From an uncultured Acidobacteriota bacterium (GTDB lineage Bacteria > Acidobacteriota > Thermoanaerobaculia > Multivoradales > UBA5704), in the NCBI GenBank assembly GCA_963755825.1, contig CAVWLA010000003.1:1472940-1536939 (forward strand): a stretch of DNA of 64,000 nucleotides, in the 5' to 3' direction. Shown here piece after piece: positions 7,469 to 55,283 of the stretch; the stretch's first letter is position 1; each line of letters opens with the position of its first letter. Below the pieces are notes generated by a model. It worked only from the letters and a program-made list of their open reading frames with translations. It ran no database searches and was not told the origin of the DNA. The translations under genes were made by a program, and so were the position numbers.

Positions 7469-7589
7469 ACAGCGCCCGTCCTCGGCGCTGGCATGCGCGG
7501 CCGGCCGCGAACGCTGTTGATAGACTCGGCGCGATGCTCTTCCATGGCGGGTTTCATCTCCCCGGCGCCCTCCGCGGAGGGCGGCGGCG

Positions 7590-8996: not shown

Positions 8997-9013
8997 CGGT
9001 TGAAAAGACGATC

Positions 9014-9769: not shown

Positions 9770-9784
9770 AGCCTCGCCAGCCGG

Positions 9785-10475
9785 TCAGCGCGGCGGGGCG
9801 GCGAGAAGCTCGGCGAGGGCCCTCTCCTTCCTCGCCTGGGCCTCGTGCTCGAGATAGAGGGTGGGCCGGCGCGGCGCGCTCGGCGCACTCGCTCTCGGCG
9901 AGGCGGCAGCGCTCGCAGGTGAGGTTGACGGCGATCCGCGGCACCGCCGGGTCGTTCCAGAAGCGCACCGTCTGCTTGAAGTGATCGTCGAGGAGGAAGC
10001 CGAGCGAGACGCTCGAGCCGGCGCCGCTCGCCAGAGCCAGGGGCCGCGCCGTGGCGATGGCGAAGAACTCGGCGTTCTCGTCGATGAACTGCGAGCGCTG
10101 GGCGGCGAGGTCGGGATGGGCCGCGAGGGTGTCGAAGTCGAGCCGGTAGCCGAAGTCCTCCTCGAGCACCCGGCGGAGCGCCCCCGGCTCCAGCGCCTCG
10201 CCGCCCGTCCAGCCGCGCGCGGCGCGAAAGCGGGCCGCCGCCTCTTCCAGGTCGGCGAAGTAATTGGCGTTCATCCGCTGGTAGGAGCGCAGGGCGGCGA
10301 GCAGGAACTGCTCGACCTGCACGTCGTAGGTGCGGCCGATGTCGAGGAGCGCGCGGATGAGCGCCGCGGCGCGCTCCGGCTGGTCGGTCGCCAGGCCGAA
10401 GAGATCCTCCGGCTGCACCCCGAAGAGCTCGAACGGAAACCCCTGCAGGAAGTCGGAGCTGAAGACCGCCTTCAC
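9785..10475 (-). pseudogene. N-terminally truncated ScfR/PrpR-family C-terminal (DUF2083, Cys-rich Fe-S type) domain gene with an apparent 3' frameshift
   Basis: Has the C-terminal Cys cluster (VNLTCERCRLAESECAERAAP) but no HTH or ImmA-like peptidase domain; the only start candidate is GTG at 10475 (no ATG, stop 20 codons upstream). After CAERAA the codon bias moves to the -1 frame (…TLYLEHEAQARKERALAELLAAPPR*, TGA at 9785-9787), while the annotated frame turns GC3-poor (CCT CTA TCT CGA). Confidence 0.5.
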
Positions 10476-29196: not shown

Positions 29197-31170
29197 CTAC
29201 GTGGGCTTGAAGGCGACGCGCATCACGGTCCACATCTTGACCCGCACGCCGTCCTTGGTCGCCGGCCGGTAGGACGAGTGGCGGGCGGCCTCCATCGCCG
29301 CCTCGTCGAAGCCGAAGCCGACCTTGGCGCCCACCGGCTGTGTCTGCACGACGCGGCCGAGCTCGTCGACGAGGACGCGGATCTGCACGTCCGCCGACTT
29401 GTTCATGTGCCGCGCCGCCGAGGGGTAGCGGGGCTCGGGCATGCCGGCCATCTTCGGCGCCACGACGCCGGGGCCGGGCTGCACCAGGTCGCCGAGCTGG
29501 ACCTTGGGCGGCGCCGGCTCGGCGTCCGCCGCCGGCGGCGGGGTCGCCGCGGCGACGCTCGGCGCCGAGGTAGCCGGGCTCGCGGCGGCGGCGGTCGACT
29601 TGGCGCCGGCGGGGGCCGGCACCGCGGCACCGGCCGCCGGCGCCGGAGATGGCGACGGCACCGCCGGCGGCGGGGCGGACTCCGGCACCACCGGCGGCGC
29701 CTCGGCGCGGGCGACGCGCGTCTCGGCGGCGGCTGGCGAGGCGCCCGCCGCATGCGTCGAGGAGGTCTCCTTCTTGCTGTCCTGGAGCTGCTTCTGGAGG
29801 GCCTTGATCCGCTCGTCGTACTGGTCCTTGAGCTTCGCCTCCATCTCCTTGCTGCGGGCGTCGAACATGGCGGTGATCTGGGCCTGGATCTCCTCCGGCT
29901 TCGGCGCCGCCGGCGCCGCGGCGCCCAGCGCCGGCAGCGGGGCGGCAACCGGCTGCGCGGCGGCCGCCGGGGCCGGCGGCGGCGCCGGCTTGCGGCCGAA
30001 GAGGAACCAGCCGCCGCCGCCGAGGACAGCGATGGCGAGCGCTGCGGCGATGGCGATCCACACCCCCTTGCCGCCGCCCGCCGCCGGCTTCGCGGCGGCG
30101 ACGCCGGGGAGCGTCGCCTCGCGCACCCCCGCCTTCTCTCGCCCGTCGGCCGCCTGGCGGCCGGCAGCGGCAGCGGCGGCAGCGGCGGCGGGCCGCGCCA
30201 CGGCGGCCGGCGCCGCCGACGGCGGCGGCGCCGAGGCGGCGTAGCGCTTCTCCGCCTGGATCTCCTCGCTCTCGCGCTCGATCTCGTCGCGGAAGAGGTT
30301 GTGCATGAAGAAGGCGAGGTTGAAGGTGGTCGGGCTGTAGTGCCCCTCGATCATCAGCTTCGAGATCGCCTTGTGCCAGGTGACGGCGTCGGCGATGCGC
30401 TCGCCGCGCGGCACCAGGCTCTTCTTGAGCAGCGCCGCGAGCGGCGCCGGCAGCGGCGTCCCCTCGTTGGCGACCACCGCGGCGTCGATCGCGGCGCCGG
30501 GGTCGCCGCCAGCCAGCCGCTCGCCGGTGAGCATCTCGAGGAGGAGGGCGCCCAACGACCAGACATCATCGGCGCGCGACAGCGGCTGGCCGGCGAGCGT
30601 CTCGGGCGAGAGATAGGGCGTGAGCTCGGCGTCGCGCCAGCCGCCGGCCGCCAGCTCGCGGAGGCCCGGCGCCAGCTCGAAGCCGAGCAGGCGCGCCTCG
30701 CCCTCGTTGGAGATCATCACCAGGTGCGGCACCACGAAGCCGTGCAGGATGCGCTCGTCCGCCACCCGGCTCTCGTAGGCGGAGGCGAGGGCGAGCGAGA
30801 TGCGCTCGGCGATCAGCATGGCATGGTCGGCGGGGATCGGCGAGCCCTGCTTCGCCGCCTGCGCGAAGAGCACAGCGAGATTCTTGCCGGAGATGTAGTC
30901 GTAGGCGGCGTAGGCGTAGTTGCGCACCCGCCCGAGGTCGACGCCGCCGCCGATGTTGGGGCTCTTCAACGCCTGCTGCACGGCGGCGCGGCCGGAGACT
31001 TTGGCCCACAGCTTGTCGCCGTCCATCCCCTTGCCGTTCAGCACCCTGAGCAGGACGACCTGCTCCATCCCCCCGTCGCCCACCTTGCCGGCGCGGAAAG
31101 TCTCGCCGAGAGCATCCTCGGTCAGCTTCTTGAGCAATAGGTAACTGCCGAACTCCTCGGGGATGTTCAT
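29197..31170 (-). CDS. Degenerate Ser/Thr-kinase-like (pseudokinase) domain - TM segment - Pro/Ala-rich linker - TonB C-terminal domain fusion protein (657 aa)
   Basis: N-terminal kinase-like fold (YLLLKKL..., APE-like LSPETLAGQP, DVWSLGALLLEMLTG) but without a Gly-loop, VAIK Lys, HRD or DFG. Hydrophobic TM segment (VWIAIAAALAIAVLGGGGWFLF), then a long A/P-rich region. C-terminal TonB-C signature: PEPRYPSAARHMNKSADVQIRVLVDELGRVV...YRPATKDGVRVKMWTVMRVAFKP. ATG at 31170 with an aggag SD. Confidence 0.7.
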   Translation of the reverse strand: MNIPEEFGSYLLLKKLTEDALGETFRAGKVGDGGMEQVVLLRVLNGKGMDGDKLWAKVSGRAAVQQALKSPNIGGGVDLGRVRNYAYAAYDYISGKNLAVLFAQAAKQGSPIPADHAMLIAERISLALASAYESRVADERILHGFVVPHLVMISNEGEARLLGFELAPGLRELAAGGWRDAELTPYLSPETLAGQPLSRADDVWSLGALLLEMLTGERLAGGDPGAAIDAAVVANEGTPLPAPLAALLKKSLVPRGERIADAVTWHKAISKLMIEGHYSPTTFNLAFFMHNLFRDEIERESEEIQAEKRYAASAPPPSAAPAAVARPAAAAAAAAAGRQAADGREKAGVREATLPGVAAAKPAAGGGKGVWIAIAAALAIAVLGGGGWFLFGRKPAPPPAPAAAAQPVAAPLPALGAAAPAAPKPEEIQAQITAMFDARSKEMEAKLKDQYDERIKALQKQLQDSKKETSSTHAAGASPAAAETRVARAEAPPVVPESAPPPAVPSPSPAPAAGAAVPAPAGAKSTAAAASPATSAPSVAAATPPPAADAEPAPPKVQLGDLVQPGPGVVAPKMAGMPEPRYPSAARHMNKSADVQIRVLVDELGRVVQTQPVGAKVGFGFDEAAMEAARHSSYRPATKDGVRVKMWTVMRVAFKPT

Positions 31171-31421
31171 GCCTTCTCCTCTCCCGGCCGGTGCCTCGCG
31201 AGGCAGCCGCACAGTCGGTCACGCGTCGGGTGGCGCGGGCTCCCGGTGAATGGGACCTTGATACACCAGGCCCAGGGGGCTGTCAATCGAAACCGGTCCC
31301 CGACGCCGACCGGAGGGCGCCGGCCGCGCGATCCCCGCCGAGCCGCCGCCTCGGGGCCGCGGCTCGGGAGGCGGCGAAGATCTTGTCGCAGAGGTCGCCG
31401 AGCTTCTCCGGCGCACCGCCC

Positions 31422-40989: not shown

Positions 40990-41427
40990 TCAGTTGAAGG
41001 CGGGCTCGGCGGCGGGGCTCTCGATCGGCAGCTTGCGCCGCTCGGCGAGCCAGGCGCGCGCCTCGCGCTCGGTGGGGTGGAACTCGAACGGCACCTTGGC
41101 GATGCCGCCCATGCGGAACATGTTCATGGCGGTGAAGATGAGCTTGGCGAGCACCCGCGCCTTGAGCGGCGCCTGGTAGATCGCGATGCCGCCGAGCGGC
41201 AGCTGCTGCAGCCCGTTGCCCGCCTCCTTGCGCCCGCCGGGCTCGATGGTGTCGAGCTCCGAGAGGTCGATCAGGTAGAAGATCCGCTCCTTGCCCCGCA
41301 CGTAGTCGAAGTGGATGCGATTGAGCTCGCGCGCATCCGCCTCGGTGACCACCCCGCTCAGCTTCATCCGCAGCAGGTCCGGCTCCTCGAAGCCGGTCCA
41401 GTGCGTCCCGACGAAATCATCAGCCAT
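40990..41427 (-). CDS. Hypothetical protein (145 aa), last gene of the minus-strand TonB-C paralog array
   Basis: High GC3; no family recognised. Confidence 0.45.
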   Translation of the reverse strand: MADDFVGTHWTGFEEPDLLRMKLSGVVTEADARELNRIHFDYVRGKERIFYLIDLSELDTIEPGGRKEAGNGLQQLPLGGIAIYQAPLKARVLAKLIFTAMNMFRMGGIAKVPFEFHPTEREARAWLAERRKLPIESPAAEPAFN

Positions 41428-41531
41428 TGAAAGTTCTCCCTCTCCGTTCGTTCCCTAAGTGCGCATTCACACGCGAACCGGGACTCCTGCGGAGAGGGAG
41501 ATCAGCGGGCGGTAAAGACGAGGTCGTACCG

Positions 41532-41786
41532 TTAGCGCGAGGGCGACGGTGTGCCGCCGAGCTTGGCGGGCTCGAAACGCGAGTCGCAGAGGGCGTCGAG
41601 GCCGCTGGCGTCGAGGTCGCGCAGGCCGCTCGTCCGCCGCAGCTCGGCCTCGCGGATGACGCCCCGCGGATCGATGATCATCTCGTAGCCGGCGGTGCCG
41701 GGGCCCGCGGTCTGGCCGAGGTACAGCGGATAGCGGGCGACGGCCTCCTCGAGGCCTCGCCCAGCTTGCGCAGCACGTGCTATCAC
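41532..41786 (-). pseudogene. Remnant of a TonB-C-domain paralog (84 aa, truncated 3' duplicate)
   Basis: ...GYEMIIDPRGVIREAELRRTSGLRDLDASGLDALCDSRFEPAKLGGTP aligns with the C-terminal TonB-C repeat of the upstream gene (...GFVRQPEILRSSGSHDLDASALQAVCDWTFQPAMLASKPV...) but stops prematurely. Confidence 0.4.
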
Positions 41787-41814
41787 GGCATCGGCCGCGC
41801 GGCGGCCTCCGACC

Positions 41815-42971
41815 TCACCGGCGGCCGACCTCGAAGTTGACGGTCAGCGTGTAGTAGGCCAGCACCGGCTTCGAGGCCAGCATCGCCGGCTGGAACGTCC
41901 AATCGCAGACCGCTTGGAGGGCGCTCGCGTCGAGGTCGTGCGAGCCACTGCTGCGGAGGATCTCGGGCTGGCGGACGAAACCGCCGGTGTCGATGATGGA
42001 ATCGAGGATGACCGTGCCGGTGGTATTTGGATGGACCATCGACCTCGGGAAGCGCGGAGGAGGGTGCTTGGAGACGCGCGGTCGCGTGACCTCGTCCTTG
42101 CCCCGTCCGAATTCCTCGGGCTGTAGGGAGCCCGATCGATTCCGGTCGAGGAGATCTCCCGGCTTGCCGGTCGGCTCGTTGGCGCCGAGGTGGTAGAAGC
42201 TCGCGACCGGCTTGCCGCCGACCATCGCCGGCTGGAAGGTCCAGCCACGGACGGCCTGGAGCACCGCGTAGGTCATCGATCGAAAGCTGCCTCCGATCAC
42301 CACCGGATCGCGCGGCCGGCCCTCCGCGTCGACGACGATCTCGGCGGCCGCCCACCGCGGACCGAGCGATGGAGGAGCGCGCCGGGCATCTCGGGAGCGG
42401 CGCCCGAGAGCCGTTGCGCCCGCCGCGTCGCAACGCCGGGGGTGCTCTCTCCCGGCGCTGCCGCCGCGGCAGCCGCCGCAACCTGGTGCACGTCGAGACC
42501 GGCAGGCGACGCGCCGAGCTGGCGCAACGGGTGGGCAACGAGCGCCTTTCCCACCTCGCTGAAGGACGAGGGATCGACGTTGCCGAGCGGATGGGCATCG
42601 AGGTTCTGCGCCACCTGCCAATCCCACGCCGCCTCCTCCTGCCGGCCGAGGCCGGACTCGGCGAGCGCCCGGTAGGCAACCAGGCGCGCCAGCGGCGGTG
42701 CGTCGATTCTGCCCTGCAGGACCCTGGCGATCGCGGGCTCGATCGCGTCGACCGCCGCCTGCCACTCGCCGCGCTGCAGAGACTGCTCGATCTGTTTGCC
42801 GGTCTCCTCGGCCGCCTTGATCTGCGCCGCCTGGGCCGCCACCAGCTCCGGCGCGGCGTCTGCCGGCGGCTTCTCTGCCTTAGCGGAAGCCGCCGCGAGC
42901 ACCAGCGACAAAACGGTGAGGAAGATCGTCGCCATCCATCTCATGGGTTTCTCCATCGCGGCTCCTTGCAT
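41815..42971 (-). pseudogene. Secreted tandem TonB-C-domain protein, paralog 1, with an apparent frameshift (or sequencing error) near 42.33-42.42 kb
   Basis: The signal peptide and N-terminal domain lie in ORF 42297..42971 (MRWMATIFLTVLSLVLAAASAKA...AWDWQVAQNLDAHPLGN...AHPLRQ). The two TonB-C-like repeats lie in a different frame, ORF 41815..42765 (PPSLGPRWAAAEIVVDAEGRPRDPVVIGGS...WTFQPAMVGGKPV... and TGTVILDSIIDTGGFVRQPEIL...WTFQPAMLASKPV...). Both halves align colinearly with the intact paralog 43086..44600. Confidence 0.5.
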
Positions 42972-43085
42972 CGAGTGGTCGCGGGAAGCCTCGCCGTCGG
43001 CGGCCGGAGGCTTCTATCCCACCCGAGCGAGGTGCGACCGTCGAACGACCTCGGCACCGTCGACGCCGCCATGCGGCGCCGCGGA

Positions 43086-44600
43086 TCACTCAGGTGAGAA
43101 TTCGATTGTAACGGAATAGAAGGAATTGACCGGCGCGCCGCCCTGGATCGCCGGCTGAAAGCGGAAGCCGCAGAGCGCGTCGAGGGCCGCGGCGTCGAGG
43201 TTGGGCGAGGCGCCGGGGGAGCGCACCTCGGGCTGGCGGAGGCCTCCCGCGGCGTCGACGACGCCGGAGACGACGACGGCGTCGAGCAGCCGCTGCGCCT
43301 TGAGGAAGCGCGGGTAGGCCGGCCGCGCGTGCTCGACCACCCGCGGGCGGAGCGGCGGCGCGGCGGCCCGGCCCTCGCGCTCACGGCGCCGATCGCCGCC
43401 GCCGTGGACCACCCAGCGCTCGCTCCCCCAGCGGTTGCGGTCGAGGAGCGCCCCCGCGGCGCCGTAGGGTCCGAGATCGGCGTCGTAGAGCGCCGGCGAG
43501 AGGACCTCGGCCGCCTGCCAGCGGCAGATAGCGGCGGGAGCGGCGCCCACGCTGGCCGGCGCCAGGATGGCTTCGGCGAGAGCGCGGAGAGCGAGGGCGG
43601 CGCCGAGGAGGGCGGGGCTGCGCTCGGCGCCGTCGAGCGCCTCCTGCCAGCGCCGCGCCGCGAGCCGACCGGCCTCGGCGAGGCGGCCGGCGCGGAGGAG
43701 CGCCTCGACGGCGCCGAGATCGACCTTCGCGCTGCCGCCGGCGCCGGCGGTAGCCAGCAGGCCGGCGAGCGGCAGGCCGGCCGGCGGATCGACGGTGAGC
43801 TCGGCGAGGACGGCGACCGGAGCGCCGCCGGCGGTCGCCGGCGCGAACCGGAAGCCGCGCAGGCTCTCCAGGGCGCGCACGGCGGCGGCGCCGGTGCGGC
43901 CGGCGACGACCACCGGCTCGCGCACCCGGCCAGCCGCATCGACGGCGAGCTCGATGCGCAGGCTCGGCGGAACTCCCTGGTGGCCCTGGCGCAGGAGCGC
44001 CGGGGCGGGGAGCTCGCCGGCCAGCCGGCGCGGCGGGCTGGCGCCCTCGGCGGCGTGGATCGCCACCCCGTCGGGCGCCGCGCCGGGTCGCCGCAGCGGG
44101 TGCGCCGCGAGGAGGGCGCCGGCGGCGCCGAAGCCGCCGAGCTCCGCGCCGGTGAGCACGCCCGGCGTCAGGTTCTCGGCCTCGTGCCAGTGCCAGAGGG
44201 CGTCCTCGGCGCTCCCCGATCCGGCCTCGGCGAGGGCGAGGCGAGAGAGCGAGTCCGCGAGGTCGAGCGCCGGCGCGCCGCTGGCGCCCAGCCCGAGGGC
44301 GAGCTCGGCGCGCGCGGCGGCCGCCGCCTTGGCGAAGCGGCCGGCGCGCAGGTCGCCGTCGAGCGTCGCCAGCCGGCGGGCGGGCTCCTCGATCCACGGC
44401 AGGCGCTCGGTGTCGTCGGCCCCAGCCGCCGGAGGCGCCGGCTGAGCAGCCGGCGCGGCGGATGTTGGGGCTGGCGGGGGCAAGGGAAGCGACGCCGGAG
44501 CCATGGGCGGCGCCGGAGGTGCCGCGAGGAGACCGCCGCCGACTCCAGCGAATACCGCGAGAAGAACGGCGAGGAGCGGCAGGAGGCGGCGGTTCGGCAT
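43086..44600 (-). CDS. Secreted Ala-rich protein with two C-terminal TonB-C-like domains, paralog 2 (504 aa)
   Basis: Signal peptide (MPNRRLLPLLAVLLAVFAG) and an Ala/Pro-rich region. TonB-C signatures: PAYPRFLKAQRLLDAVVVSGVVDAAGGLRQPEVRSPGASPNLDAAALDALCGFRFQPAIQGGAPVNSFYSVTIEF plus an upstream degenerate copy. Confidence 0.7.
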   Translation of the reverse strand: MPNRRLLPLLAVLLAVFAGVGGGLLAAPPAPPMAPASLPLPPPAPTSAAPAAQPAPPAAGADDTERLPWIEEPARRLATLDGDLRAGRFAKAAAAARAELALGLGASGAPALDLADSLSRLALAEAGSGSAEDALWHWHEAENLTPGVLTGAELGGFGAAGALLAAHPLRRPGAAPDGVAIHAAEGASPPRRLAGELPAPALLRQGHQGVPPSLRIELAVDAAGRVREPVVVAGRTGAAAVRALESLRGFRFAPATAGGAPVAVLAELTVDPPAGLPLAGLLATAGAGGSAKVDLGAVEALLRAGRLAEAGRLAARRWQEALDGAERSPALLGAALALRALAEAILAPASVGAAPAAICRWQAAEVLSPALYDADLGPYGAAGALLDRNRWGSERWVVHGGGDRRREREGRAAAPPLRPRVVEHARPAYPRFLKAQRLLDAVVVSGVVDAAGGLRQPEVRSPGASPNLDAAALDALCGFRFQPAIQGGAPVNSFYSVTIEFSPE

Positions 44601-44689
44601 GGCCGGTCGGCGACGTCGGTCGAGGTTCGCTCGCGGCCGGCCGGCGAGGGTCCGCCGGCCGGCGGGGCGGATGGTAGCCTAGCGCGCCG

Positions 44690-46822
44690 ATGCCCCTCTC
44701 GCACCGGATGCTCGAACGGCCGGCCCGCGCCTCCCGGCGGCCAGGCCGCCGCGGGCTCGCGAGCTCCCTCGCGGCGCTCGCCCTCGGCGCGCTGGCGGCG
44801 GCGCTCGCCGGCTGCGGCACCGGCGAGAGCCCTCCGGCGCCGGCCGCGGCGCCGACAACCGGCTCCGCGGCGACGCCGGCGGCGGGCGCCGGACCGGCCA
44901 TCGAGCCGCGCATCGCCCGCGCCGCGCTCCCCGGCCGGCGCGTCGTCTTCGTCGGCCTCGACGGCGCCGACTGGGACCTCCTCGACCCCTACATGGCGGC
45001 CGGCGTGATGCCGAGCTTGGCGGCGCTCGTCCGCGACGGGCGGAGCGGCGTGCTGACGACCATCCATCCGCCGCTCTCGCCGCTCGTCTGGACGACGATG
45101 ATGACCGGCGTCGGCCCGCTCGAGCACGGCGTCCTCGACTTCACCCGCTTCGATCCGCAGAGCGGCGCCCGCGAGCCGATCACCAGCGCTGAGCGGCGGG
45201 TGCCGGCGATCTGGAACATGGCGACGGCGGCCGGCCGGAGCGTCGCCGTCTTCGGCCTCTGGGCGACCTACCCGGCCGAGCCGGTGCGCGGCGTCGTCGT
45301 CTCCGACCGCCTCTTCTCCTTCGAGTTCGGCGAGGCGGCGCCGCCTCCCGGCGCCGTCTACCCCGCCGGCCGCGAGGCGTGGGCGAAGCAGGCGCTCGCC
45401 GCGGCCGAGGCGGCGAACGGCTACGCCGCCCTCCACGCCTACTTCCCCTGGCTCGGCGAAGCGGAGTTCCGCCGCGCCCTCGCCGCGCCGAACGCCTTCG
45501 CGCAGCCGGTCTCGGCGCTGCGCCGCATCCTCGTCGAGACCGACGTCTACCACCGCCTGGCGGCCGATCTGCTGTCGCGGCCGGCGCCGCCGGCCGGCGA
45601 GCTGCCCGACCTCACCGTCCTCTACATCCAGGGGACGGACGCCGTCGGCCACCTCTTCGCGCCCTACGCGCCGCCGCGCCTGCCGCGCGTCTCGGCGGAG
45701 GATTTCGCGCGCTACGGCGACGTGCCGCGGCGCTACTTCGCCGCCGTCGACGCGCTGGTGGGCACCATGCGGCGGCTCGCCGAGCGCTCGGGGGCGGTCC
45801 TCTTCATCGCCTCCGATCATGGCTTCCGCTGGCACGACCGGCCGGACGAGGCGCCGCGATTCGCCGCCGCCACCGCCGGGCGCTGGCACCGCGAGGAGGG
45901 CATCTCGCTCCTCTGGGGACCGGGGATCGAGCGCGGCGCGAGCGGCAACCACGCGGACCGCGCGAGCGTCCGTCAGGTCTGCTCGACCCTCCTCGCCCTC
46001 CTCGGTCTCCCTCCCGATCGCCGCCTCGCCGGGCCGCCGCTCGCGGGGGTCAGCGCGCCGGCGCTCGCCGACGTCCACTACGAGCAGGGCTTCCGCCCAT
46101 CGGCCGCCGGCGGCTCGCGGGCGGCGGCGCCCGCCGATGCCGAGGCGGTGGCCAAGCTGCGCGCTCTGGGCTACATCGGCGCCGCCGAGCCGGCGCGCGC
46201 AGCCGCTCCGCCTGCCGGCGGCGCTCCGGCGAGCGACGCCACCCGCACCGCCGGCTCCTACGACAACGAGGGGTTGATCCTCCGCGAGGCGGGGCGCCCG
46301 GCCGAGGCCGCCGCGGCCTTCGAGCGCGCCGTGGCGCGCGATCCCCACAACGCCTCGGCGCTATGGAACCTGAGCGACCTCCTGGCGGCGGGCGGCGGCG
46401 GCTCGCCGGCGGACCTCGACCGCGCCGACCAGCTGCTCGTCGAGGCCATCGCCGCCGGGCTGCCGGACGGCGCCGCCCATCTCCGCGAGCGGGCGGCCCG
46501 CGACGGCCGCGAGGGCGACCCCGAGCGCAGCCTCCGCCTCCTCGCCGCGGCGACCGCGGCGCGCCCCGACGACGCCGAGATCTGGCTGCTCGCCGGCCGC
46601 TACCGCGTCGAGCGGCGCGACTGCCGAGGGGCGCTCGACGCCTTCGAGCAAGCCGAGCGGCTCGCCCCCACCAACGCCATCAGCTTCGGCTCGTCGGCCC
46701 TCGCTCGGCTCTGTCTCGGCGACGCGCCGGGCGCCGCGGCCGATCTCCGCCGCTCCCTCGCCCTCGACCCCGACCAGCCCGCCCTGCGCCGGGCGCTCAC
46801 CGAGATCCAGGCCGGCCACTGA
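44690..46822 (+). CDS. Type I phosphodiesterase / nucleotide pyrophosphatase (AlkP-superfamily) lipoprotein with C-terminal TPR repeats
   Basis: LAGCG lipobox; VVFVGLDGADWDLLDPYM...HPPLSPLVWTTMMTG...FIASDHGF; ...LRALGYIG; then TPR-like helices (DPHNASALWNLSDLL...). Confidence 0.7.
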   Translation: MPLSHRMLERPARASRRPGRRGLASSLAALALGALAAALAGCGTGESPPAPAAAPTTGSAATPAAGAGPAIEPRIARAALPGRRVVFVGLDGADWDLLDPYMAAGVMPSLAALVRDGRSGVLTTIHPPLSPLVWTTMMTGVGPLEHGVLDFTRFDPQSGAREPITSAERRVPAIWNMATAAGRSVAVFGLWATYPAEPVRGVVVSDRLFSFEFGEAAPPPGAVYPAGREAWAKQALAAAEAANGYAALHAYFPWLGEAEFRRALAAPNAFAQPVSALRRILVETDVYHRLAADLLSRPAPPAGELPDLTVLYIQGTDAVGHLFAPYAPPRLPRVSAEDFARYGDVPRRYFAAVDALVGTMRRLAERSGAVLFIASDHGFRWHDRPDEAPRFAAATAGRWHREEGISLLWGPGIERGASGNHADRASVRQVCSTLLALLGLPPDRRLAGPPLAGVSAPALADVHYEQGFRPSAAGGSRAAAPADAEAVAKLRALGYIGAAEPARAAAPPAGGAPASDATRTAGSYDNEGLILREAGRPAEAAAAFERAVARDPHNASALWNLSDLLAAGGGGSPADLDRADQLLVEAIAAGLPDGAAHLRERAARDGREGDPERSLRLLAAATAARPDDAEIWLLAGRYRVERRDCRGALDAFEQAERLAPTNAISFGSSALARLCLGDAPGAAADLRRSLALDPDQPALRRALTEIQAGH

Positions 46823-46917: not shown

Positions 46918-48372
46918 TCAAGGGCTGTGCGTGGCCTGCTTGAAGGCGGCCAGGAGGCGGCGCGCTAGCGCGGCGGTGAGACGCTCTTCGCCGGCCGCCT
47001 GGCGGAAGAGGGTCAAGGCCGCGAGGCGCTCGCGCTCCACCCTCTGCGCGGCGAAGATCGGAGCGGACTCGGCCGCGAGCGCCTTGACCTCCGCCGTCTT
47101 CCCCTCGCCGGCCAAGAGCGCGGCGAGCTCGAGCGTCGCGAGCGCCGCGTCGTAGGCGATCCTGCGCTCGACGAGCTCGTCGCGCACTTCGCGCAGGGCG
47201 GCTGCCGCCTCGTCCGGCCGGCCGCTCGCGGCGGCGATCCGCCCTTCCAGCCAGCGGAGGCGCGTGCGGTGGAGCCCCTTGCCCGAGCGCTCGGCCAGCC
47301 CGCGCACCTCGGCGACCAGCGGCTCCGCCTCGGCGTGGCGGCCCACCGCGTCGAGGTTTTCCGCCAGGTTGAACCGCAGGGCGAACCAGACCCTCTCGTC
47401 GGCAGGGTCGGCGAGGGGGATCGCCCGCTCGAGCGTGGCGATCGCCGTCTCGTAGTCGCCGACCTCCTCCAGCGTCTTCGCCTTCTTGACCAGAATTCTC
47501 GCGACGGCGTTGGGAGGACAGATGGCGAGGGCCTGATCGAGCAGGGCGAGAGCTTCCGGGACCCGCCGCTCACCCCGGCACAAGGAAGCTTCGAGGTCGA
47601 GCCGGCGCGAGGCGTCGAGCAGGCCGTGCTCGTCGTCCGCTCCGAGGGGCCAAGCGGCCCGCGAGCGGGCGAAGGCCTCCTTCGCCGCCGGCAGCTCGCC
47701 GCTCGCCCGGAGGGCGTTGCCGTGGAACGCCTCGCAATGGCCCTGCAGCTCCGAACGCCATCGCTCGCCGCCAGGTGCGAAGCGGGCGATCTCCACGGCG
47801 AGCCGGGCGAGCGCGATGGCCGGACGCGGATCGTGCGCCGCCGCCGCCTCGCTCTCGCCGCAGAGGAGCACGGCGAGGGCCCAGCTCCGGAACCGCTCGC
47901 CCGCCCGCACCAGACCGAGGCGCTCCTCCTGCGAGAAGGGCTCGAGGAGCTGGCGGAGGCCCGGGGCCGCCAGCCGGTCCGCCGCGCTGGGAGCGGGCGG
48001 CGCGGGCTCCGCACGGGCGAGGAGGAGCGCCGCGCGCGTGAAGCCTTCCGCCGCGCGGCCGGCGCCGGCGGCGAGGGCGTCGGCCTCCGCGCCCGGCGGC
48101 CCGCCGGCGCGGAGCGTCCCGCCGGCGCCGATGACCTGCCGGACGACGTGGAGGCAGGCGAGGAGAGGATCGAGGAGAGGCAGCGGGAAGCGCAGGGCGG
48201 CCATCAGGCGGTCGAGGCTGCGGCCGGACGGCGCCACCTTGCCGGTCTCGTACTCGCAGAGCGAGCTGGCCGCGACGCCTGCCCTCTCGGCCAGCTCGGC
48301 CTGCGTCTCGCGGTGAAACCAGCGGAGCAGGCCGAGCGCCGCGCCCAGATCTACGGGGTCTCTCGCCGTCAT
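46918..48372 (-). CDS. XRE-HTH + TPR-repeat transcriptional regulator, paralog A (484 aa)
   Basis: ATG at 48372. HTH_XRE LRWFHRETQAELAERAGVAASSLCEYETGKVAPSGRSLDRLMAAL followed by ~400 aa of TPR-like helices. Colinear with paralog B: shared blocks ILVKKAKTLEE.GDYE.A.ATLERA, FALRFNLAENL, RLRWLEGRIAAA and ALREVRDEL. Confidence 0.75.
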   Translation of the reverse strand: MTARDPVDLGAALGLLRWFHRETQAELAERAGVAASSLCEYETGKVAPSGRSLDRLMAALRFPLPLLDPLLACLHVVRQVIGAGGTLRAGGPPGAEADALAAGAGRAAEGFTRAALLLARAEPAPPAPSAADRLAAPGLRQLLEPFSQEERLGLVRAGERFRSWALAVLLCGESEAAAAHDPRPAIALARLAVEIARFAPGGERWRSELQGHCEAFHGNALRASGELPAAKEAFARSRAAWPLGADDEHGLLDASRRLDLEASLCRGERRVPEALALLDQALAICPPNAVARILVKKAKTLEEVGDYETAIATLERAIPLADPADERVWFALRFNLAENLDAVGRHAEAEPLVAEVRGLAERSGKGLHRTRLRWLEGRIAAASGRPDEAAAALREVRDELVERRIAYDAALATLELAALLAGEGKTAEVKALAAESAPIFAAQRVERERLAALTLFRQAAGEERLTAALARRLLAAFKQATHSP

Positions 48373-48567
48373 CGCCCTCCCATGGGACTCACCGATTCGC
48401 CGTGCCCGCGAAGCGCCGGAGCGATCCCTCCTCGCGCAAAGCCTAACTCTCTTCGGCCTTGGGCCGAACATTTCGGGGTTACCCTGGCGCACCATTGCCG
48501 GAAAGGGAGCGTGCCCGGGCGGCCATGGAGGCCGCCGGGCGGCGCCTCCCCCGAAAGGAGCAAATCC

Positions 48568-48876
48568 ATGTCCCATTCCATCCGCCGCAGGATCGCCACC
48601 CTCGCCCTCGGCGCGCTGCTCGCCGCCCCGTGGGCCGCACAGGCCGGGGAGCGGCGCCCGGCCGCGCCGCGAGGCGCGCGAGCGGCAGCTCAGGTGCCCG
48701 CCGGTCCCCTCGGTCGCCTCTGGGGTTCCCTCCAGGCGCTCTGGAGTGAGGAGGGGTGCACGATCGATCCGAGCGGTGCCCGCTGCGCCAGCCACGCGCA
48801 GGGCGCCGGCACGCCCATCAGCCCGGCTCCCGCGGGATGCACGATCGACCCCAACGGCGCCGCCTGCTCGCGGTAG
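48568..48876 (+). CDS. Small secreted peptide precursor (102 aa) with two CTIDP(S/N)GA(R/A)C repeats
   Basis: aaaggag SD 7 nt upstream of the ATG. Sec signal peptide MSHSIRRRIATLALGALLAAPWAAQA|GE. The predicted mature ~76-aa part contains two Cys-bracketed 10-residue loops (GCTIDPSGARC, GCTIDPNGAAC). Lies between the two HTH-TPR regulators. Confidence 0.6.
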   Translation: MSHSIRRRIATLALGALLAAPWAAQAGERRPAAPRGARAAAQVPAGPLGRLWGSLQALWSEEGCTIDPSGARCASHAQGAGTPISPAPAGCTIDPNGAACSR

Positions 48877-48937
48877 CTACAGAGGAGCTCCCCTCTCCCG
48901 GCGAGGACCTCACCGGGGGAGGGCGGCCGCCGCGCCC

Positions 48938-50425
48938 TCAGGCGGCTTCGAAGCGGAGCTGCGGCTGGTGGCGCGCGCGGTAGAGGTAGCGGACCACGTC
49001 CCGCGCGATCTCGGGCGTCGCCGACTCGCGCTCCGCGGCGCGGCGGAAGAAGGCGAGCGCCTTCCGCGCCTCGGCGTGGACCTCCTGGCGCTCGAAGACG
49101 GCGGCCATCTGCCGCGCCAGCGTGCGGACGACGTCCATCCGCCCCTGGACCGCGTACTGCTCCGCCAGCTCGAGCGAGACGAGGGCCATGTCGTAGGCCA
49201 TCCCCCGCGTGGCGAGCTCGCCGCGGACCTTGCCGAGGGCGGCGATCGCCTCCCCGGTCCGCCCGAGGCCCGCGGCGATCCGCCCGTCGAGCCACAGCAG
49301 GCGCACGCGGTAGAGGTCGCCGCGCAGCCGGAGCGCCAGCGTCCGCACCTCGGCGACCATCGGCTCGGCCTCGGCGTGGCCGCCGACGTGCAGGAGGTTC
49401 TCGGAGAGATTGAAGCGGAGGGCGAAGCGCAGGTGAGGGTCGCCCGCCGCCTCGACCAGCGGCTTCGCCTCCCGCAGGGTCGCCACGGCGGCCGCGTAGT
49501 CGGCCGTCTCCTCGAGCGTCTTCGCCCGCTTGATGAGGATGCGCGCCGAGGAAGCGGCGCCCGGGGAGACGGCGAGCGCGCGCTCGAGCAGGGCGAGGGC
49601 CTCGGGGAATCGCCGCTGGGCTCGGCGCAGAGAGGCCTCGAGGTCGAGGACGCGGGAGGGGTCGAAGGGGCTCGGCCCGGCAGGCTCCTCGCTCCAGAGC
49701 GCCCGCGCGCGGCGGAAGGCCTCGTCGGCGGCGGGCAGGCTCTTGCCCTGCACCCGCCGGGCGTTGGCGACGAACGCCCAGGCGTGGCCCTGGGCGCGGA
49801 GCCCCTCGTCGCCCTCGACGCCGCGGGCGATCCACAGCGCCAGGTCCGCCAGCTCGGCGGCCTGGGAGGGCTCGTGGGCCGCCGCCCTCTCGCTCTCCTC
49901 GCAGATCAGGGCGCAGAGCGCGGCGGTCTTCCGCTCGGGGATGCAGTCGAGGAGCGGCCGCCGGCGCGCCGCAGGATGGGCGGCGAGCATCTCCCAGACC
50001 TCGCGGGCCACGCCCTTCGCCTCCTCCACCTCGGCACGGGCGGCGTGGACGGTCGCCGCCGCGCGCAGGAAGGTGGAGCTGGCGCGCGCGCCGTCCGCCG
50101 CCAGCCGCTCGATCGCCTGGCGCGCCGCCGCGCGCGCGTCCCGCGGGGCGCGGCGGGCGGCGATCTCGGCGCGCCCCTCGCGCAGCAGATCGAGCACGCG
50201 GTCGACGATGGAGTCCGGCAGGTTCATCGCCGCGGCGAAACGGCCGAGCGCCTCGCGCGTCGGCACGCTCTTGCCGCGCTCGAGCTCCGAGATCCAGCCG
50301 GGCGTCAGGCCGGTCAACGTGGCCAGCTCCTGCGCGCTGCGCAGACCGGCGACGCGCCGCAGGATGACGAGCGCCTCGCCTTCCACGGGCGGGCCCTCGG
50401 TCATCTCCTCTTCATCCTCTCTCAT
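48938..50425 (-). CDS. XRE-HTH + TPR-repeat transcriptional regulator, paralog B (495 aa)
   Basis: ATG at 50425. HTH_XRE LRSAQELATLTGLTPGWISELERGKSVPTREALGRFAAAMNL and a TPR-like body colinear with paralog A. Confidence 0.75.
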   Translation of the reverse strand: MREDEEEMTEGPPVEGEALVILRRVAGLRSAQELATLTGLTPGWISELERGKSVPTREALGRFAAAMNLPDSIVDRVLDLLREGRAEIAARRAPRDARAAARQAIERLAADGARASSTFLRAAATVHAARAEVEEAKGVAREVWEMLAAHPAARRRPLLDCIPERKTAALCALICEESERAAAHEPSQAAELADLALWIARGVEGDEGLRAQGHAWAFVANARRVQGKSLPAADEAFRRARALWSEEPAGPSPFDPSRVLDLEASLRRAQRRFPEALALLERALAVSPGAASSARILIKRAKTLEETADYAAAVATLREAKPLVEAAGDPHLRFALRFNLSENLLHVGGHAEAEPMVAEVRTLALRLRGDLYRVRLLWLDGRIAAGLGRTGEAIAALGKVRGELATRGMAYDMALVSLELAEQYAVQGRMDVVRTLARQMAAVFERQEVHAEARKALAFFRRAAERESATPEIARDVVRYLYRARHQPQLRFEAA

Positions 50426-50636
50426 GCGCTGGTCCTGAAACAAAGGATATCCGCCGCGGCAGCGGCGTGACAGTTGAAGCGCGTCGGAAACCCGGAAAAG
50501 CGGGGCGGATCGCCGAACGGCGCTTTTTTTCGCAGCAACCGCTTGGTTGCGGCGGCGCAGGCCCGTACCGTCCTCCTCGCGCCGGCCGTGCTCGATGGCT
50601 GCCCTCATGGCGGCCTCGCCGGCGGGGAGCCTGCGG

Positions 50637-52067
50637 ATGGGAGAAACGACGAATGCCGTGCTCGATCAGCTTCGATCCCTGGCCGCCGTCCTGGCCTGCG
50701 TCCGCGGCCGCCTGATCGAGCTGTCAGCGGCCCTGCCGGAGGAGGAGCCGGCGGCCGAGGGACCGGAAGGCGCGGAGGTCGAGCCGGGCCTGCGGTCGGT
50801 CCTCTCCTGCGTGCTCACCGACTCGATCGAACCGGCGATTCGCGACCTGCTCCTGGCCGCCGAGCACGAGCCGGCGCAGCCGCCAGCGGCGACTCCCGCC
50901 GCACGGACCCGTGAGGCCGATGAGCCCGGCTACCGGGCTCTCTTCGCGCGGCTCGCGACCAGCCTGCCCCGCTCTGCCGCTGCCGCCGAGCGCACCCGCC
51001 GCGAGACGGACCGCCTCTACCGCGATCTCGTCGCGTCGACGAGAACCGACCGGCTGGAGGCGACGGGAGAGCTCCGCTTCCATCGGCTCGACCTCGTGGA
51101 GCGCCTTCTCGAAGACGCTCGAGGCGCGCTGCCTTCCGACCCAGGCTCGGCCGAGGAGCTGGCGAGCCTCGCCGCGGCGATCGCCGGCCGGCTCGCCGAT
51201 GCCGACGAGAGCTCGGAGGGCAGAGCGCGGGCGGCCTGCTGGATCGCGCACGCTCGCCGCATCGCCGGCGATCTCGCTGGCGCCGAGAGGGCCCTCTCCG
51301 GAGCGACGCTCTACGCCGCGGGATATTCCGACGAGCAGGCCGAGCTCTGCCGCGCGGTCGCCCTCCTGCGCTGGGAGCAGGGGCGGATGGAGGAGGCGAG
51401 AGCGATGCTCGAACGCGCCGAGGAGCTCTGGGCTGGCGAGGAAGCGCCTCACGAGCAGGGAGCCTGCCAGGTGCTCGCGGCGCTGCTCTCGATCGAAGAG
51501 GGCAGAGCGCGGGATGCGGTGAGACCGCTGCGCGATGCGCTGCCGCTCCTCATCGATCCCTGGCTCACCGTCTACGGCCGCCTCGCGCTGGCGCTCGGCT
51601 TGGCCGAGAAGGGACAGGCGAAGAGAGCGCGGGAGCAGCGCGGCGAGAGCGGGCGGTCGGCGCCGCTCGCGCCACCGGCGGCGCACCTCTTCGCGCTCCA
51701 TCTCGAGGCGAGGATCGCCTTGAGCCTGGGCGAGCACGCCGCGGCGAGCGCGATGCTCGAAGACCTGCGCCGCGAGGCGATCGAGCGGCGGTGGCTGCCA
51801 GAGGCCGCGCTCGCGACGCTCAACCTCGCCCGCCTGGACATCGAACGCGGGTCGGAGCCGGAGGCGGCGGCGGAGCGCCTGGCCGAGCTGGAAGCGATCT
51901 TCACGGGATCTGAGCCGCTGGACGGCCTCGTCGCGGCCTTGCGGGAATTCCCGCAGCAGATCGCCGCCGGCGAGAGCCTCGCGGAGTTCACCCCGTCTCT
52001 TGCGGCGACCATGCTGCGGCTGCTGCGGCTGCGTGGCGTTCGCGGCGGGGCGCTCCCGTTCGCCTGA
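50637..52067 (+). CDS. TPR-like helical protein without HTH, paralog C (~476 aa; start uncertain, ATG at 50637 after a gggag SD)
   Basis: All-helical; resembles the TPR bodies of A and B (LERAEELW, RLALALGLAEKGQ, LEARIALSLGEHAAA) but has no DNA-binding domain. Divergent from regulator B. Confidence 0.55.
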   Translation: MGETTNAVLDQLRSLAAVLACVRGRLIELSAALPEEEPAAEGPEGAEVEPGLRSVLSCVLTDSIEPAIRDLLLAAEHEPAQPPAATPAARTREADEPGYRALFARLATSLPRSAAAAERTRRETDRLYRDLVASTRTDRLEATGELRFHRLDLVERLLEDARGALPSDPGSAEELASLAAAIAGRLADADESSEGRARAACWIAHARRIAGDLAGAERALSGATLYAAGYSDEQAELCRAVALLRWEQGRMEEARAMLERAEELWAGEEAPHEQGACQVLAALLSIEEGRARDAVRPLRDALPLLIDPWLTVYGRLALALGLAEKGQAKRAREQRGESGRSAPLAPPAAHLFALHLEARIALSLGEHAAASAMLEDLRREAIERRWLPEAALATLNLARLDIERGSEPEAAAERLAELEAIFTGSEPLDGLVAALREFPQQIAAGESLAEFTPSLAATMLRLLRLRGVRGGALPFA

Positions 52068-52310: not shown

Positions 52311-52472
52311 AGTCGGCTCCCGAGGCCGGCTCCTGAGCGCTGGCGCCGCCCGGCGGCGTGAGCCGTTGTGGTAGCGTTCCTCCCCGCAACATCACCGTAT
52401 TCGGCCAACACCCCCGAGCGGCTGCGCACGAGCGCGGCCGGCCGCGGGCGATCCGACCCAAGGAGGTCTCCG

Positions 52473-55283
52473 ATGCAGACGCTCGGCCGCTGTCTCCTTC
52501 TCCTCACGCTCGCCGCCGGGGTGCTCTCGCCGCTCGCCGCCCAGACCACCGGCGGCGTCGTCGGCCGGGCGACGGACGAATCCGGCGGTCCGCTGCCGGG
52601 CGTCCTCGTCGAGGCGACCGGCGCCGCTCTGCAGGGCTCGCGCAGCGCGACGACCGACGCCAAGGGCACCTACCATCTGACCCTCCTGCCCCCCGGCCAG
52701 TACACCATCAGCTTCACCCTGCAGGGCTTCGGCAGCGAAACGCGGCGGGCGATCGCCGTCGAGCTCGACCGCGACGCGACGATCGACGCGGTCTTGAAGC
52801 CGCGCGCCGCCGAGGAGATCACAGTCGTCGGCGAGGCGCCGGTCGTCGACACCACGACGACCGAGCTGGGGACGAACCTCGACAGCCGCCAGATCGAGAC
52901 CCTGCCGACCGGCCGCAACTATTCGTCGGTGGTGCAGATCACCCCCGGCGTCTCCTCCGACGCCAACCCCGACAACTCCCAGCAGACGACGATCACCGTC
53001 TACGGCTCGTCGGGAGCGGAGAACGCCTTCTACATCGACGGCGTCAACACCACCAACGTCGAGTACGGCTTCCAAGGCAAGGAGCTCAACTTCGAGTTCA
53101 TCGAGGCGATCGACGTCAAGACCGGCGGCTACGAGGCGGAGTTCGGCCGCGCCACCGGCGGCATCGTCAACGTCATCACCAAGTCCGGCGGCAACGCCTT
53201 CCACGGCGACGCCTTCGGCTACTACGACAACGACTCGCTGCAGTCGAGCGCCAAGACGGTGTTCTCGAACAGCGGCACGGTCGAGGGCTTCACCCGCGAC
53301 GACTACGGCGCCGACCTCGGCGGCTACCTCGTCAAGGACAAGCTGTGGTTCTTCGGCGCCTACGACAAGGTGAGCAACACGACGAAGAGCGCGCTGCCGT
53401 CGGGGCCGGCGATGGGCGACGTCGTCAGCTCCGACAGCACGCACGATCTCGGCGCCGGCAAGCTCACCTACCACTTCTCCGCCAGCCAGTCGCTCATCGC
53501 CAGCTTCTTCCAGGACCCGCGGACCGACACCGGCGCCATCAACGACGCCAACCACACGTTGAACGGCGACCCGCTCACCTACACCGGCGAGCAGCAGTAC
53601 GGCGGCAAGGACTACGCCCTCCGCTACCAGGGCGTCGCCGGCTCGAGCTGGGTGTTCACCGCGCAGGCCTCGCGCCACCAGGAGCAGAACTCGGTGGGCC
53701 CCGCCTCGGCGGCCGGCGACACGATCCAGTACATCGCTTCGGACAACAAGAACTTTCAGACCGGCGGCTTCGGGCTCATCCAGGACAAGACCTTCAAGCG
53801 CGACTTCCTCGGCGGCTCGGCCGAGCGCTATCTCGGCGGCCACGAGATCAAGGGCGGCATCGAGTACGAGAAGGAGTCGGCCGACGTCGTCAAGCGCGAG
53901 TCGGGCGGCCAGCTGGTGACGGTGTACGCCAACCCGAACGATCCCAGCCAGCCGATCTACAGCCACGCCTACTGGACGACGCCGACCGCGACGGTCCCCA
54001 ACGCGCCGGTCTCGGCGCTCTTCGCCTCGCCGTCGCACAAGGTCACCACCGCCTACCTGCAGGACCGCTGGACGGCGCGCTCGAACCTCACCCTGACCTA
54101 CGGCCTGCGCTGGGACCGCCAGCAGATCATCGACGCCGAGGGTACCCAGCAGATCGACCTCAAGAAGGACTTCGCGCCGCGCCTGGGCGCCATCTGGGAT
54201 CCGCGCAGCGATCACAAGAGCAAGGTCTACGCCTCGGCGGGGCGTTTCTACGAGCAGATTCCGATGGACCTCGTCATCCGCTCCTTCTCTTTCGAGCGGC
54301 AGCCGCGCATCGTCAACTTCTCGCCCACCGACAACCATCCGGACCCCAACGCCGAGGCCATCCTGGGCACCGGCTCGACCATCCTCGGCGGCTTCACCGA
54401 GCCGGCGGACCCCAACATCGGCGGCCAGTATCTCGACGAGTACATCGTCGGCGCCGAGCGCGAGGTGCTGCCCAGCGTCTCGGTCGGCATCAAGGGGATC
54501 TACCGCAGCTACGGACAGGTGATCGAGGACTTCCTCTGCATCAACGACGGCACCTACTGCATCGGCAACCCCGGCAAGGGGATCTTCAAGCGCGACTTCA
54601 CCCTCGACTACTCGACGACCTATCCGACGCCGGCGCCGCAGCGCATCTACCGCGGCATCCAGCTCGACGTCAACAAGCGCTTCTCGAACAATTGGCAGGG
54701 GCTCGCCTCGTACATCTACTCGAAGCTCGACGGCAACTACGACGGCGAGTACTCGCCCTTCACCAACGTCGGCGCCGACCCCAACATCTCGGCCGCCTAC
54801 GACTACTACGACTTCTTCACCAACGGCACCGACCTCACCCGCATCACCAACAAGGGTCCGCTGTCGAACGAGCGCCAGCACCAGCTCAAGCTCTCCGGCG
54901 TCTACTTCACCCCCTGGAAGCTGCAGATCGGCCTCTCCGGCTACTACAGCAGCGGCACGCCGCTCACCCGCTACGGCTTCTCGGACGCCTACGGCCGCTA
55001 CGAGTTCTTCCTCACCGAGCGCGGCGCCGAGGGGCGCTCGCCGTCGATCTACGAGGCCGACCTCCACCTCGGCTATCCGCTCACCTTCGGGCCGACGACG
55101 GTCAACCTCCTCTTCGACGTCTTCAACCTGCTGAACGCCCAGCGGCCGATCCTGCTCGACGAGCGCTGGGACTTCGCCGAGGCGGACAACACCTCGCCCA
55201 CCCCCACCAACCCCGACTACAAGAGACCCATCCTGCGAACACCGCCGACCTCGCTGCGGCTGGGGCTGAGGGTGAGCTTCTAG
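52473..55283 (+). CDS. TonB-dependent outer-membrane receptor with an N-terminal carboxypeptidase-regulatory-like domain (936 aa)
   Basis: aaggagg SD and a signal peptide. CarbopepD_reg-like VVGRATDESGGPLPGVLVEA...GTYHL; plug domain (TLPTGRNYSSVVQITPGV); a large barrel ending ...LRLGLRVSF with a terminal aromatic residue. Confidence 0.85.
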   Translation: MQTLGRCLLLLTLAAGVLSPLAAQTTGGVVGRATDESGGPLPGVLVEATGAALQGSRSATTDAKGTYHLTLLPPGQYTISFTLQGFGSETRRAIAVELDRDATIDAVLKPRAAEEITVVGEAPVVDTTTTELGTNLDSRQIETLPTGRNYSSVVQITPGVSSDANPDNSQQTTITVYGSSGAENAFYIDGVNTTNVEYGFQGKELNFEFIEAIDVKTGGYEAEFGRATGGIVNVITKSGGNAFHGDAFGYYDNDSLQSSAKTVFSNSGTVEGFTRDDYGADLGGYLVKDKLWFFGAYDKVSNTTKSALPSGPAMGDVVSSDSTHDLGAGKLTYHFSASQSLIASFFQDPRTDTGAINDANHTLNGDPLTYTGEQQYGGKDYALRYQGVAGSSWVFTAQASRHQEQNSVGPASAAGDTIQYIASDNKNFQTGGFGLIQDKTFKRDFLGGSAERYLGGHEIKGGIEYEKESADVVKRESGGQLVTVYANPNDPSQPIYSHAYWTTPTATVPNAPVSALFASPSHKVTTAYLQDRWTARSNLTLTYGLRWDRQQIIDAEGTQQIDLKKDFAPRLGAIWDPRSDHKSKVYASAGRFYEQIPMDLVIRSFSFERQPRIVNFSPTDNHPDPNAEAILGTGSTILGGFTEPADPNIGGQYLDEYIVGAEREVLPSVSVGIKGIYRSYGQVIEDFLCINDGTYCIGNPGKGIFKRDFTLDYSTTYPTPAPQRIYRGIQLDVNKRFSNNWQGLASYIYSKLDGNYDGEYSPFTNVGADPNISAAYDYYDFFTNGTDLTRITNKGPLSNERQHQLKLSGVYFTPWKLQIGLSGYYSSGTPLTRYGFSDAYGRYEFFLTERGAEGRSPSIYEADLHLGYPLTFGPTTVNLLFDVFNLLNAQRPILLDERWDFAEADNTSPTPTNPDYKRPILRTPPTSLRLGLRVSF

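Follow-up and report, generated by a model that had tools for sequence, protein, structure and literature searches.

Does a row of TonB_C genes in a soil acidobacterium record a family that is growing or one that is being lost, and do its products act as TonB proteins at all? The locus that raises these questions lies in a stretch of 64,000 nucleotides, hereafter the window (contig CAVWLA010000003.1 of the uncultured Acidobacteriota assembly GCA_963755825.1, forward-strand positions 1,472,940 to 1,536,939), in which a preliminary description made from the letters alone had singled out three successive minus-strand open reading frames (ORFs) as carrying TonB C-terminal (TonB_C) domains. Profile scoring bears this out. 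All three ORFs exceed the 24.6-bit cut-off of Pfam PF03544, namely the gene here called paralog A (E 7e-14, 52 bits, two matched stretches), frame 41815..42765 of paralog B (E 4e-23, 82 bits, again two stretches) and an 84-residue ORF attributed to paralog C (E 1.6e-5, 25.7 bits); TIGR01352 agrees (cut-off 27.1 bits), A and B scoring 38 and 57 bits. Taken as a whole, the locus is in our view rather well explained as a contracting array of three paralogs, in which A is intact, B is a probable pseudogene and C survives as a stub.

The three paralogs and their lesions

The 3'-most of the three ORFs is also the most reduced. The 84-residue ORF (41532..41786) sits inside a remnant (41502..41798, minus strand) that corresponds to the last ~100 codons, linker and final TonB_C domain, of a third gene, as identified by tblastn with the homolog P0016, BLASTP and a tree in which it groups with the C clade. 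Residues 370-475 of P0016, up to its last residue, align in a single frame to 41792..41496 (54% identity, E 5e-28), and the remnant reads '...GGTPSPSR*RYDLVFTAR*' opposite 'GGKAIPTRYQYTLQFYIRKVP' of P0016. The internal stop is a nonsense TAA (41532..41534, minus strand) in place of a tyrosine codon, both L006 and L003 having TAC at this position of the DNA alignment; when the tblastn alignment is read through it, the ancestral frame continues as RYDLVFTAR and ends 30 nt downstream at a TGA (41502-41504). Because the P0016 C terminus aligns in frame through the change from TAC to TAA, the 84-residue ORF is, judged from these alignments, the 3' stub of paralog C, a gene that has lost its 5' ~370 codons (about 1.1 kb) by deletion and a tyrosine codon to a stop. 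It was thus correctly seen to end prematurely; it is not, as supposed, a copy of the last repeat of B but what deletion left of a third gene, its best BLASTP match being the C-terminal TonB_C domain of P0016 (64%), ahead of P0013-P0015 (49-54%) and of B (43%). Against the family-specific hidden Markov model (HMM) it scores E 1e-18, and it keeps a single element of the family layout, the second TonB_C domain.

Two other readings of this remnant were considered. A second 1-nt frameshift at its 3' end (PVALALTVRP) is ruled out by tblastn, which reads the TAA in frame to RYDLVFTAR*. The profile of G+C content at third codon positions (GC3) favored another frame for 41700-41790, which was set aside since the single-frame P0016 alignment, with a 7-codon gap, fits better.

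Paralog A (43086..44600, minus strand; 504 amino acids) is intact, as had been proposed, its single ORF spanning positions 20-461 of the 463-position family HMM. A signal peptide (residues ~1-26) and a Pro-rich linker (~27-65) are followed by two helical domains, H1 (68-165) and H2 (278-388), each of which precedes a TonB_C domain, T1 (191-270) and T2 (420-501), respectively. The AlphaFold2 model (pLDDT 83.5, pTM 0.77) resolves this chain into five regions: an N-terminal helix (7-18) with a disordered Pro-rich segment, and then two pairs of a helical bundle and an alpha/beta domain, with the boundaries just given for H1, T1, H2 and T2. In Foldseek, the alpha/beta domains match TonB C-terminal domains (TMt 0.7-0.86; 6i97_D, 2gsk_B and 9ddz at 0.75-0.86), which were also the sole matches of a profile search against PDB sequences, and the helical parts retrieve TPR-like proteins as weak matches (E around 1). 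P0001 is the database twin of the A protein, and A orthologs in four loci (L001, L002, L003 and L021) are 64-82% identical.

Paralog B (41815..42956, minus strand) carries two lesions. Its signal peptide and H1 lie in one frame (42297..42956) and T1 and T2 in the -1 frame (41815..~42358), which closes at the natural stop (41815-41817); both halves are colinear with A in BLASTP and with homologs in a protein alignment, in line with the initial view of a gene split over two frames. Protein and DNA alignments place the break at 42359..42360 (minus strand), where CC stands for the CCC that homologs imply: the upstream frame ends ..LLHRSV and the downstream frame resumes with PRWAAAEIVVD (PRWAAAEIVVDAEGRPRDP), homologs reading RSVPKWLxAELVVDAxGRPRDP. 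The positional and best-hit ortholog of B is P0013, the second gene of the intact L003 array (52% amino acid and 67% nucleotide identity); its DNA alignment with B shows a 1-nt gap at the frame break, a codon-position GC HMM switches frame at 42355/6, and insertion of one C at 42360 yields an ORF of 380 amino acids.

The second lesion was absent from the preliminary description. An in-frame deletion of ~290 nt, with its junction at 42151..42168 (minus strand) in alignments with homologs, has removed the whole of H2, so that B runs from '..TGKP' after T1 directly into 'GDLLDRNRSG' before T2 and lacks ~100 residues. Our comparison set comprised 21 homologs of 444-516 amino acids and, with window B, 22 members (family sequences are labelled P0001-P0023): all 21 homologs have the order signal peptide-H1-T1-H2-T2, whereas B, with H1-T1-T2, follows the family layout in part and stands alone in having gaps at 31 columns that the others conserve. 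In addition, the near-invariant Trp of the NRWG motif is Ser in B. A one-base correction therefore does restore a 380-residue ORF, as anticipated, but not the normal gene expected with it, because H2 and the 31 conserved columns would still be missing. B is probably a recent pseudogene, in which a 1-nt deletion parts the signal peptide and H1 from both TonB_C domains, in addition to the in-frame loss of H2. In current gene calls the pieces of B and C figure as three small genes in their own right, which urges caution in annotation.

Because the G+C content of the window is ~73%, long spurious ORFs abound in the ORF listing. Exact-sequence look-ups of the ORFs first listed returned no database match, since database gene calls start at other start codons, and scans of 41300-44900 for sigma-70 promoters and intrinsic terminators found none.

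Direction of change and nature of the frameshift

Related loci differ in how much of the array they hold. In L003/L004 (one MEGAHIT-named contig and one JGI assembly), the whole array is intact, with genes of 468, 462 and 477 amino acids (P0008, P0013 and P0015) in tandem, flanked by the same phosphodiesterase and epimerase genes, and L021 has two array genes. In L006, P0016 is followed by a SpoIIAA-like gene, as is the C remnant in the window, and conservation between the two extends over the intergenic region below the remnant and into the first part of the SpoIIAA-like gene. In L001/L007 (MFD01213.bin.2.31 contig_2874, the closest relative of the window) and L002 (GCA_037025365.1, JBAIHP010000298.1), the next element after A is the conserved motif that precedes the SpoIIAA-like gene, and no trace of B or C was found at the syntenic site. 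In neighbor-joining trees three clades stand apart, one of A, one of C (P0014, P0015, P0016 and the fragment from the window) and one of B (P0013 and a sequence from L013), window B forming a long basal branch. Identities amount to 32-43% among the paralogs within the window and to 37-50% between the three clades; by these measures the three paralogs are old.

Because the paralogs are old and a relative with three intact genes exists, the array was inherited in its three-gene form and is now shrinking. It started, on this account, as three old paralogs of an exported modular family, A, B and C, lying in tandem; in the window A has stayed intact, B has probably been inactivated recently and C has been reduced to a stub, and the relatives represent other stages of loss, with three intact genes, two genes or A alone. 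Such a series documents the staged loss of a paralog array, from three-, two- and one-gene relatives to a window with two genes dying. As far as these comparisons reach, the array is contracting, with no sign of expansion; of the expanding and decaying family envisaged at the outset, the decay stands on the lesions of B and C, and the expansion falls to the age of the clades, the intact L003 array and the clean loss of B and C in the closer relatives. The locus is a case of genes decaying in an ordinary way, within a TonB_C protein family whose architecture is a rare and unstudied variant.

Two observations touch on how genes left the array. The genome MFD01213.bin.2.31, in which A alone occupies the syntenic locus, has a paralog of the B clade elsewhere (L013, contig_3575, 5857-7308), and given this copy the 'loss' may in part be relocation. 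A chimeric A/C gene in L001 as the route of loss is ruled out, the C terminus of L001 A being A-type.

Recent growth by local tandem duplication, with the 84-residue ORF as a partial copy of the last TonB_C domain of B, was the model first put forward, and the adjacency, common strand and common architecture of the genes would suit it; however, it is very unlikely in view of the low mutual identity of the paralogs, the position of the fragment nearer to P0016, P0013, P0014 and P0015 (49-64%) than to B, and the intact A-B-C array at the syntenic site of L003. The frameshift in B needs closer weighing. That it is biological, and not a consensus error, we hold to be likely with good confidence. 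Scanning all 64 kb by codon-position GC HMM and codon bias, we found B to be the only same-strand frame switch that lacks a stop codon within ~20 nt; a second flagged switch, at 44681, proved to be an artefact, an antisense reading of the Pro-rich 5' end of A. Since the window holds ~1,900 G/C runs of at least 3 nt, 155 CCGCGG sites and 47 CCCGCGG sites, a single frame switch despite so many such contexts argues against a general collapse at G/C runs or CCGCGG. Consensus errors of the R10.4 type at 3-mers are rare. Moreover, the lesion occurs in a gene with a separate, non-artefactual domain deletion, unique in the family, and adjoins an undoubted pseudogene; B is mildly accelerated (outgroup identity 0.358 versus 0.38-0.41 for its clade-mates); and the Logan k-mer assembly of run ERR11718634 shows the same split products (219 + 153 + 84 amino acids). 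A family member in L022 (SMAG_U4104 k141_827497, a MEGAHIT-named contig; 567-2005) is likewise split over two frames, within the second helical domain (..RRALNDNER, then TTAFFGVALTEKALAEAGLG..); with this k141_ contig taken as a short-read assembly, its frameshift counts toward that of B being real.

Several points weigh on the other side, where the break would be a long-read consensus error, B an intact, shorter H-T-T variant of 380 amino acids and C the only pseudogene. The lesion is a change from CCC to CC beside a CCGCGG site, a context of possible miscall. Relatives stem from assemblies of Nanopore reads alone: the nearest, MFD01213.bin.2.31, is a metagenome-assembled genome (MAG) from a Nanopore-only metaFlye and Medaka assembly (PMC12313526). 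The window's own contig, of 3.08 Mb, is by its Mb-scale length probably of the same kind of origin, and the Logan contig, possibly built from the window's own reads, may not be fully independent. The retained parts of B keep a strong GC3 and have changed at 11.8% of conserved columns, which is mid-range, with no excess; a few family representatives of ~400 amino acids with one detectable helical domain exist, and B could be a shorter form that is still in use. The frameshift site was looked for in JGI metagenomes by pattern scan, and no second copy turned up. With these arguments set against the single break among so many comparable runs and the company of other lesions, a consensus error in an intact B is improbable, although it is the rival that carries most weight. 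Expression of B by programmed -1 ribosomal frameshifting or by phase variation has the -1 relation of the two halves as its sole support and can be practically dismissed: the context TCGGTCCGCGG contains no slippery heptamer, a run of 2-3 nt is far too short for phase variation, and all 21 homologs are single-frame.

Family architecture, export and relation to TonB

The family to which the three paralogs belong consists of a signal peptide followed by one to four units of a TPR-like helical domain and a TonB_C domain, the helical domain bearing the motif AEAG-G-x-E-x-A-x-W-x-W before the TonB_C-like domain. When H1 by itself served as the query, 151 of 1.84 billion cluster representatives matched (E <= 1e-3), with lengths of ~230, ~450-510, ~650-720 and ~815-905 amino acids for one, two, three and four matched stretches, and TonB_C is present in the long forms. 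The family is rare (~150 representatives) and mostly confined to Thermoanaerobaculia, genome matches being almost all to Thermoanaerobaculia/Acidobacteriota MAGs. No description of secreted tandem TonB_C/TPR proteins was found in the literature.

The N termini agree with the earlier notion of signal peptides in place of a TonB-type anchor. Sec-signal-peptide-like N termini, with a basic n-region, an h-region of 10-14 residues and AxA-like sites, were recognized in 16 of 20 family sequences, and four A-clade entries have no recognizable one; these calls come from simple heuristics rather than SignalP, which tempers the argument for export. The Ser/His anchor motif of TonB is absent from all 20 N termini, none of which has a His in the h-region. 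No exbB or exbD gene (MotA_ExbB and ExbD families) was found among the neighbors in the window, L001-L003, L030 or L032, where views reach 6-10 kb to each side of the locus rather than whole genomes. From their sequences, then, the proteins look exported and carry TonB-type C-terminal domains without obvious coupling to a Ton motor. Because Sec-type signal peptides replace the TonB anchor, we infer that they are periplasmic and would be unable to serve as ExbBD-driven energy transducers.

The likeness to TonB nevertheless extends beyond profile scores above the Pfam and TIGR cut-offs. The C-terminal alpha/beta domain is shared, the A model superposing on the TonB C-terminal domains of FoxA, BtuB and FhuA complexes with TMt 0.75-0.86; the YP motif is kept in T2, and A has a Pro-rich stretch. 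It could be argued, then, that these are genuine TonB energy transducers, the N-terminal hydrophobic segment of A being an uncleaved anchor that leads into a TonB-like Pro-rich spacer: A does have a 22-residue uncharged N-terminal stretch followed by ~35 Pro/Ala-rich residues, the fold is that of a TonB C terminus, and one homolog is named 'energy transducer TonB' by NCBI. However, orthologs and paralogs have short h-regions and AxA-type sites where TonB has an N-terminal helix as its anchor and link to ExbBD, the SxxxH-type motif is absent, exbB and exbD are not adjacent in the loci inspected, and scores against the equivalog models of E. coli TonB stay far short of the cut-offs. Unlike TonB, too, the proteins here have two TonB_C domains per chain, each behind a TPR-like helical domain of ~100 amino acids. 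A role as genuine transducers is accordingly most unlikely, the label 'energy transducer TonB' that public databases attach to the family is probably wrong, and such labels probably inflate TonB counts in Acidobacteriota. TonB_C domains thus occur in exported, anchor-less, multi-module proteins.

What such proteins would do is a matter for prediction. The C-terminal domain of TonB binds the TonB box by beta-augmentation (PMC11658791). If the TonB_C domains here keep this mode, they would dock onto beta-strand 'box' motifs in proteins of the outer membrane, the helical domains would engage a second partner, and the role would be that of a passive adaptor, clamp or decoy, much as the preliminary description suggested. 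A non-energized periplasmic adaptor function is a tentative prediction in this sense; that it is directed specifically at TonB boxes is doubtful. It is equally doubtful that the intact members are natural soluble multi-headed TonB-box binders whose tandem TonB_C domains hold or titrate away TonB-dependent receptors or further proteins of the outer membrane. As such binders they might recruit the second partner through their TPR-like domains and regulate, or serve as a scaffold for, transport across the outer membrane or assembly of the envelope, module number (1-4) and gene loss tuning the system.

Known systems offer partial parallels. In work by Howard et al. in J Bacteriol in 2001, periplasmic C-terminal fragments of E. 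coli TonB reportedly inhibited transport through FhuA and FecA, and because such fragments inhibit transport, the idea of a decoy suggests itself: in concept, an unanchored TonB_C domain may occupy TonB boxes without energy transduction. Those fragments, however, are artificial constructs, whereas TonB-box binding by the natural family is putative; if true, the family would be a natural counterpart of laboratory-made inhibitory fragments. MxcH-type TonB-dependent receptors (NCBIfam NF038079, to whose profile positions 2-85 the TonB_C domains of the array align) and the pseudokinase gene described below likewise show TonB_C as a periplasmic module that can be carried over to proteins other than the Ton motor, but there the domain is tethered to a barrel or, in the membrane-anchored case, to a kinase-like domain; here it is part of soluble exported proteins with helical repeats, in one to four copies. 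Domain III of TolA has a TonB_C-like fold and belongs to the same Pfam clan. The Tol-Pal system combines TolA domain III with the TPR protein CpoB in envelope maintenance (PMC12204202). In that system, unlike here, the TonB_C-like and TPR parts are separate proteins and a TolQR motor is present; no tolQR, tolB or pal gene was found nearby, and the TolA and CpoB models gave no sequence match.

Genomic contexts of the family are heterogeneous, a point against the proposed account: a sugar-nucleotide/LptD cluster at loci of the window type, glycosyltransferases and a sulfatase in L032, and an ECF sigma factor with a protease in L030. In L032 (JGI 3300061177; 7001-10053), two distant members of the family (516 and 500 amino acids), arranged in tandem, lie within a cluster of GT2 and GT1 glycosyltransferase, sulfatase and PIG-L genes, a second, independent association of the family with envelope-polysaccharide genes. 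This recurring envelope-polysaccharide context is at least as good a lead to function as TonB-dependent transport.

Neighboring genes and A orthologs

The array lies between two conserved anchors. Upstream, a divergent gene for a type I phosphodiesterase with TPR (44690..46822, plus strand; Pfam) adjoins A in all A-clade loci and is 74-78% identical in L001, L002, L003 and L021 by tblastn; the loci of A homologs are syntenic, with this gene on one side and the sugar-nucleotide/LptD cluster on the other. Downstream is the SpoIIAA-like gene (40990..41427, minus strand; PF11964), whose product is 77-91% identical in L001, L002 and L006. A conserved non-coding motif of ~31 nt, GTCCCGGTTCGCGTGTGAATGCGCACTTAGG (41454..41484, minus strand), found upstream of it by alignment with these three loci, marks the array's downstream border in every relative with the SpoIIAA-like gene. 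It is nearly invariant elsewhere (L001 ~9470-9500, L002 ~9515-9545, L006 ~1545-1575) and is probably a regulatory site.

Two A orthologs show breaks of their own. In L001 (7838-8010), the signal peptide (MPGLVLALVLALAPGLAGG...PPPAAPPAA) is out of frame with the mature part (..STEHLPWIEEP), which looks like a frameshift-like break within the Pro-rich linker; no further frameshift was seen across the 17-kb L001 locus, and A there may either be decaying too or contain a Nanopore error. In L002, a palindromic repeat element of ~110 nt (7902-8010), with nested 18-nt inverted arms that are 89-94% complementary and a translation of VILSGSEGSGG...ILRFAQDDKGG, separates the signal-peptide part of the A ortholog from its mature part, the two being in different frames.

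The pseudokinase gene and the TonB-dependent receptor that the preliminary description placed in the window are both present. The former (29197..31218, minus strand; 673 amino acids) encodes a kinase-like N-domain without HRD/DFG-type motifs (HGF and LLGFE), followed by a transmembrane helix (GVWIAIAAALAIAVLGGGGWFLF), a Pro/Ala-rich coiled region and a C-terminal TonB_C domain with a YP motif, a TonB-like topology in which a pseudokinase replaces the short cytoplasmic tail. Between the phosphodiesterase-TPR gene and the receptor, the window has three paralogous HTH_3 and TPR genes (46918-52067: 46918..48795, minus; 48938..50608, minus; 50547..52067, plus), which are missing there in L001, L002 and L021. 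The receptor itself (52368..55283, plus strand; CarboxypepD_reg, Plug and barrel) shares 85-93% identity with its counterparts in the same three loci, and its conservation far exceeds that of the TonB_C array genes beside it.

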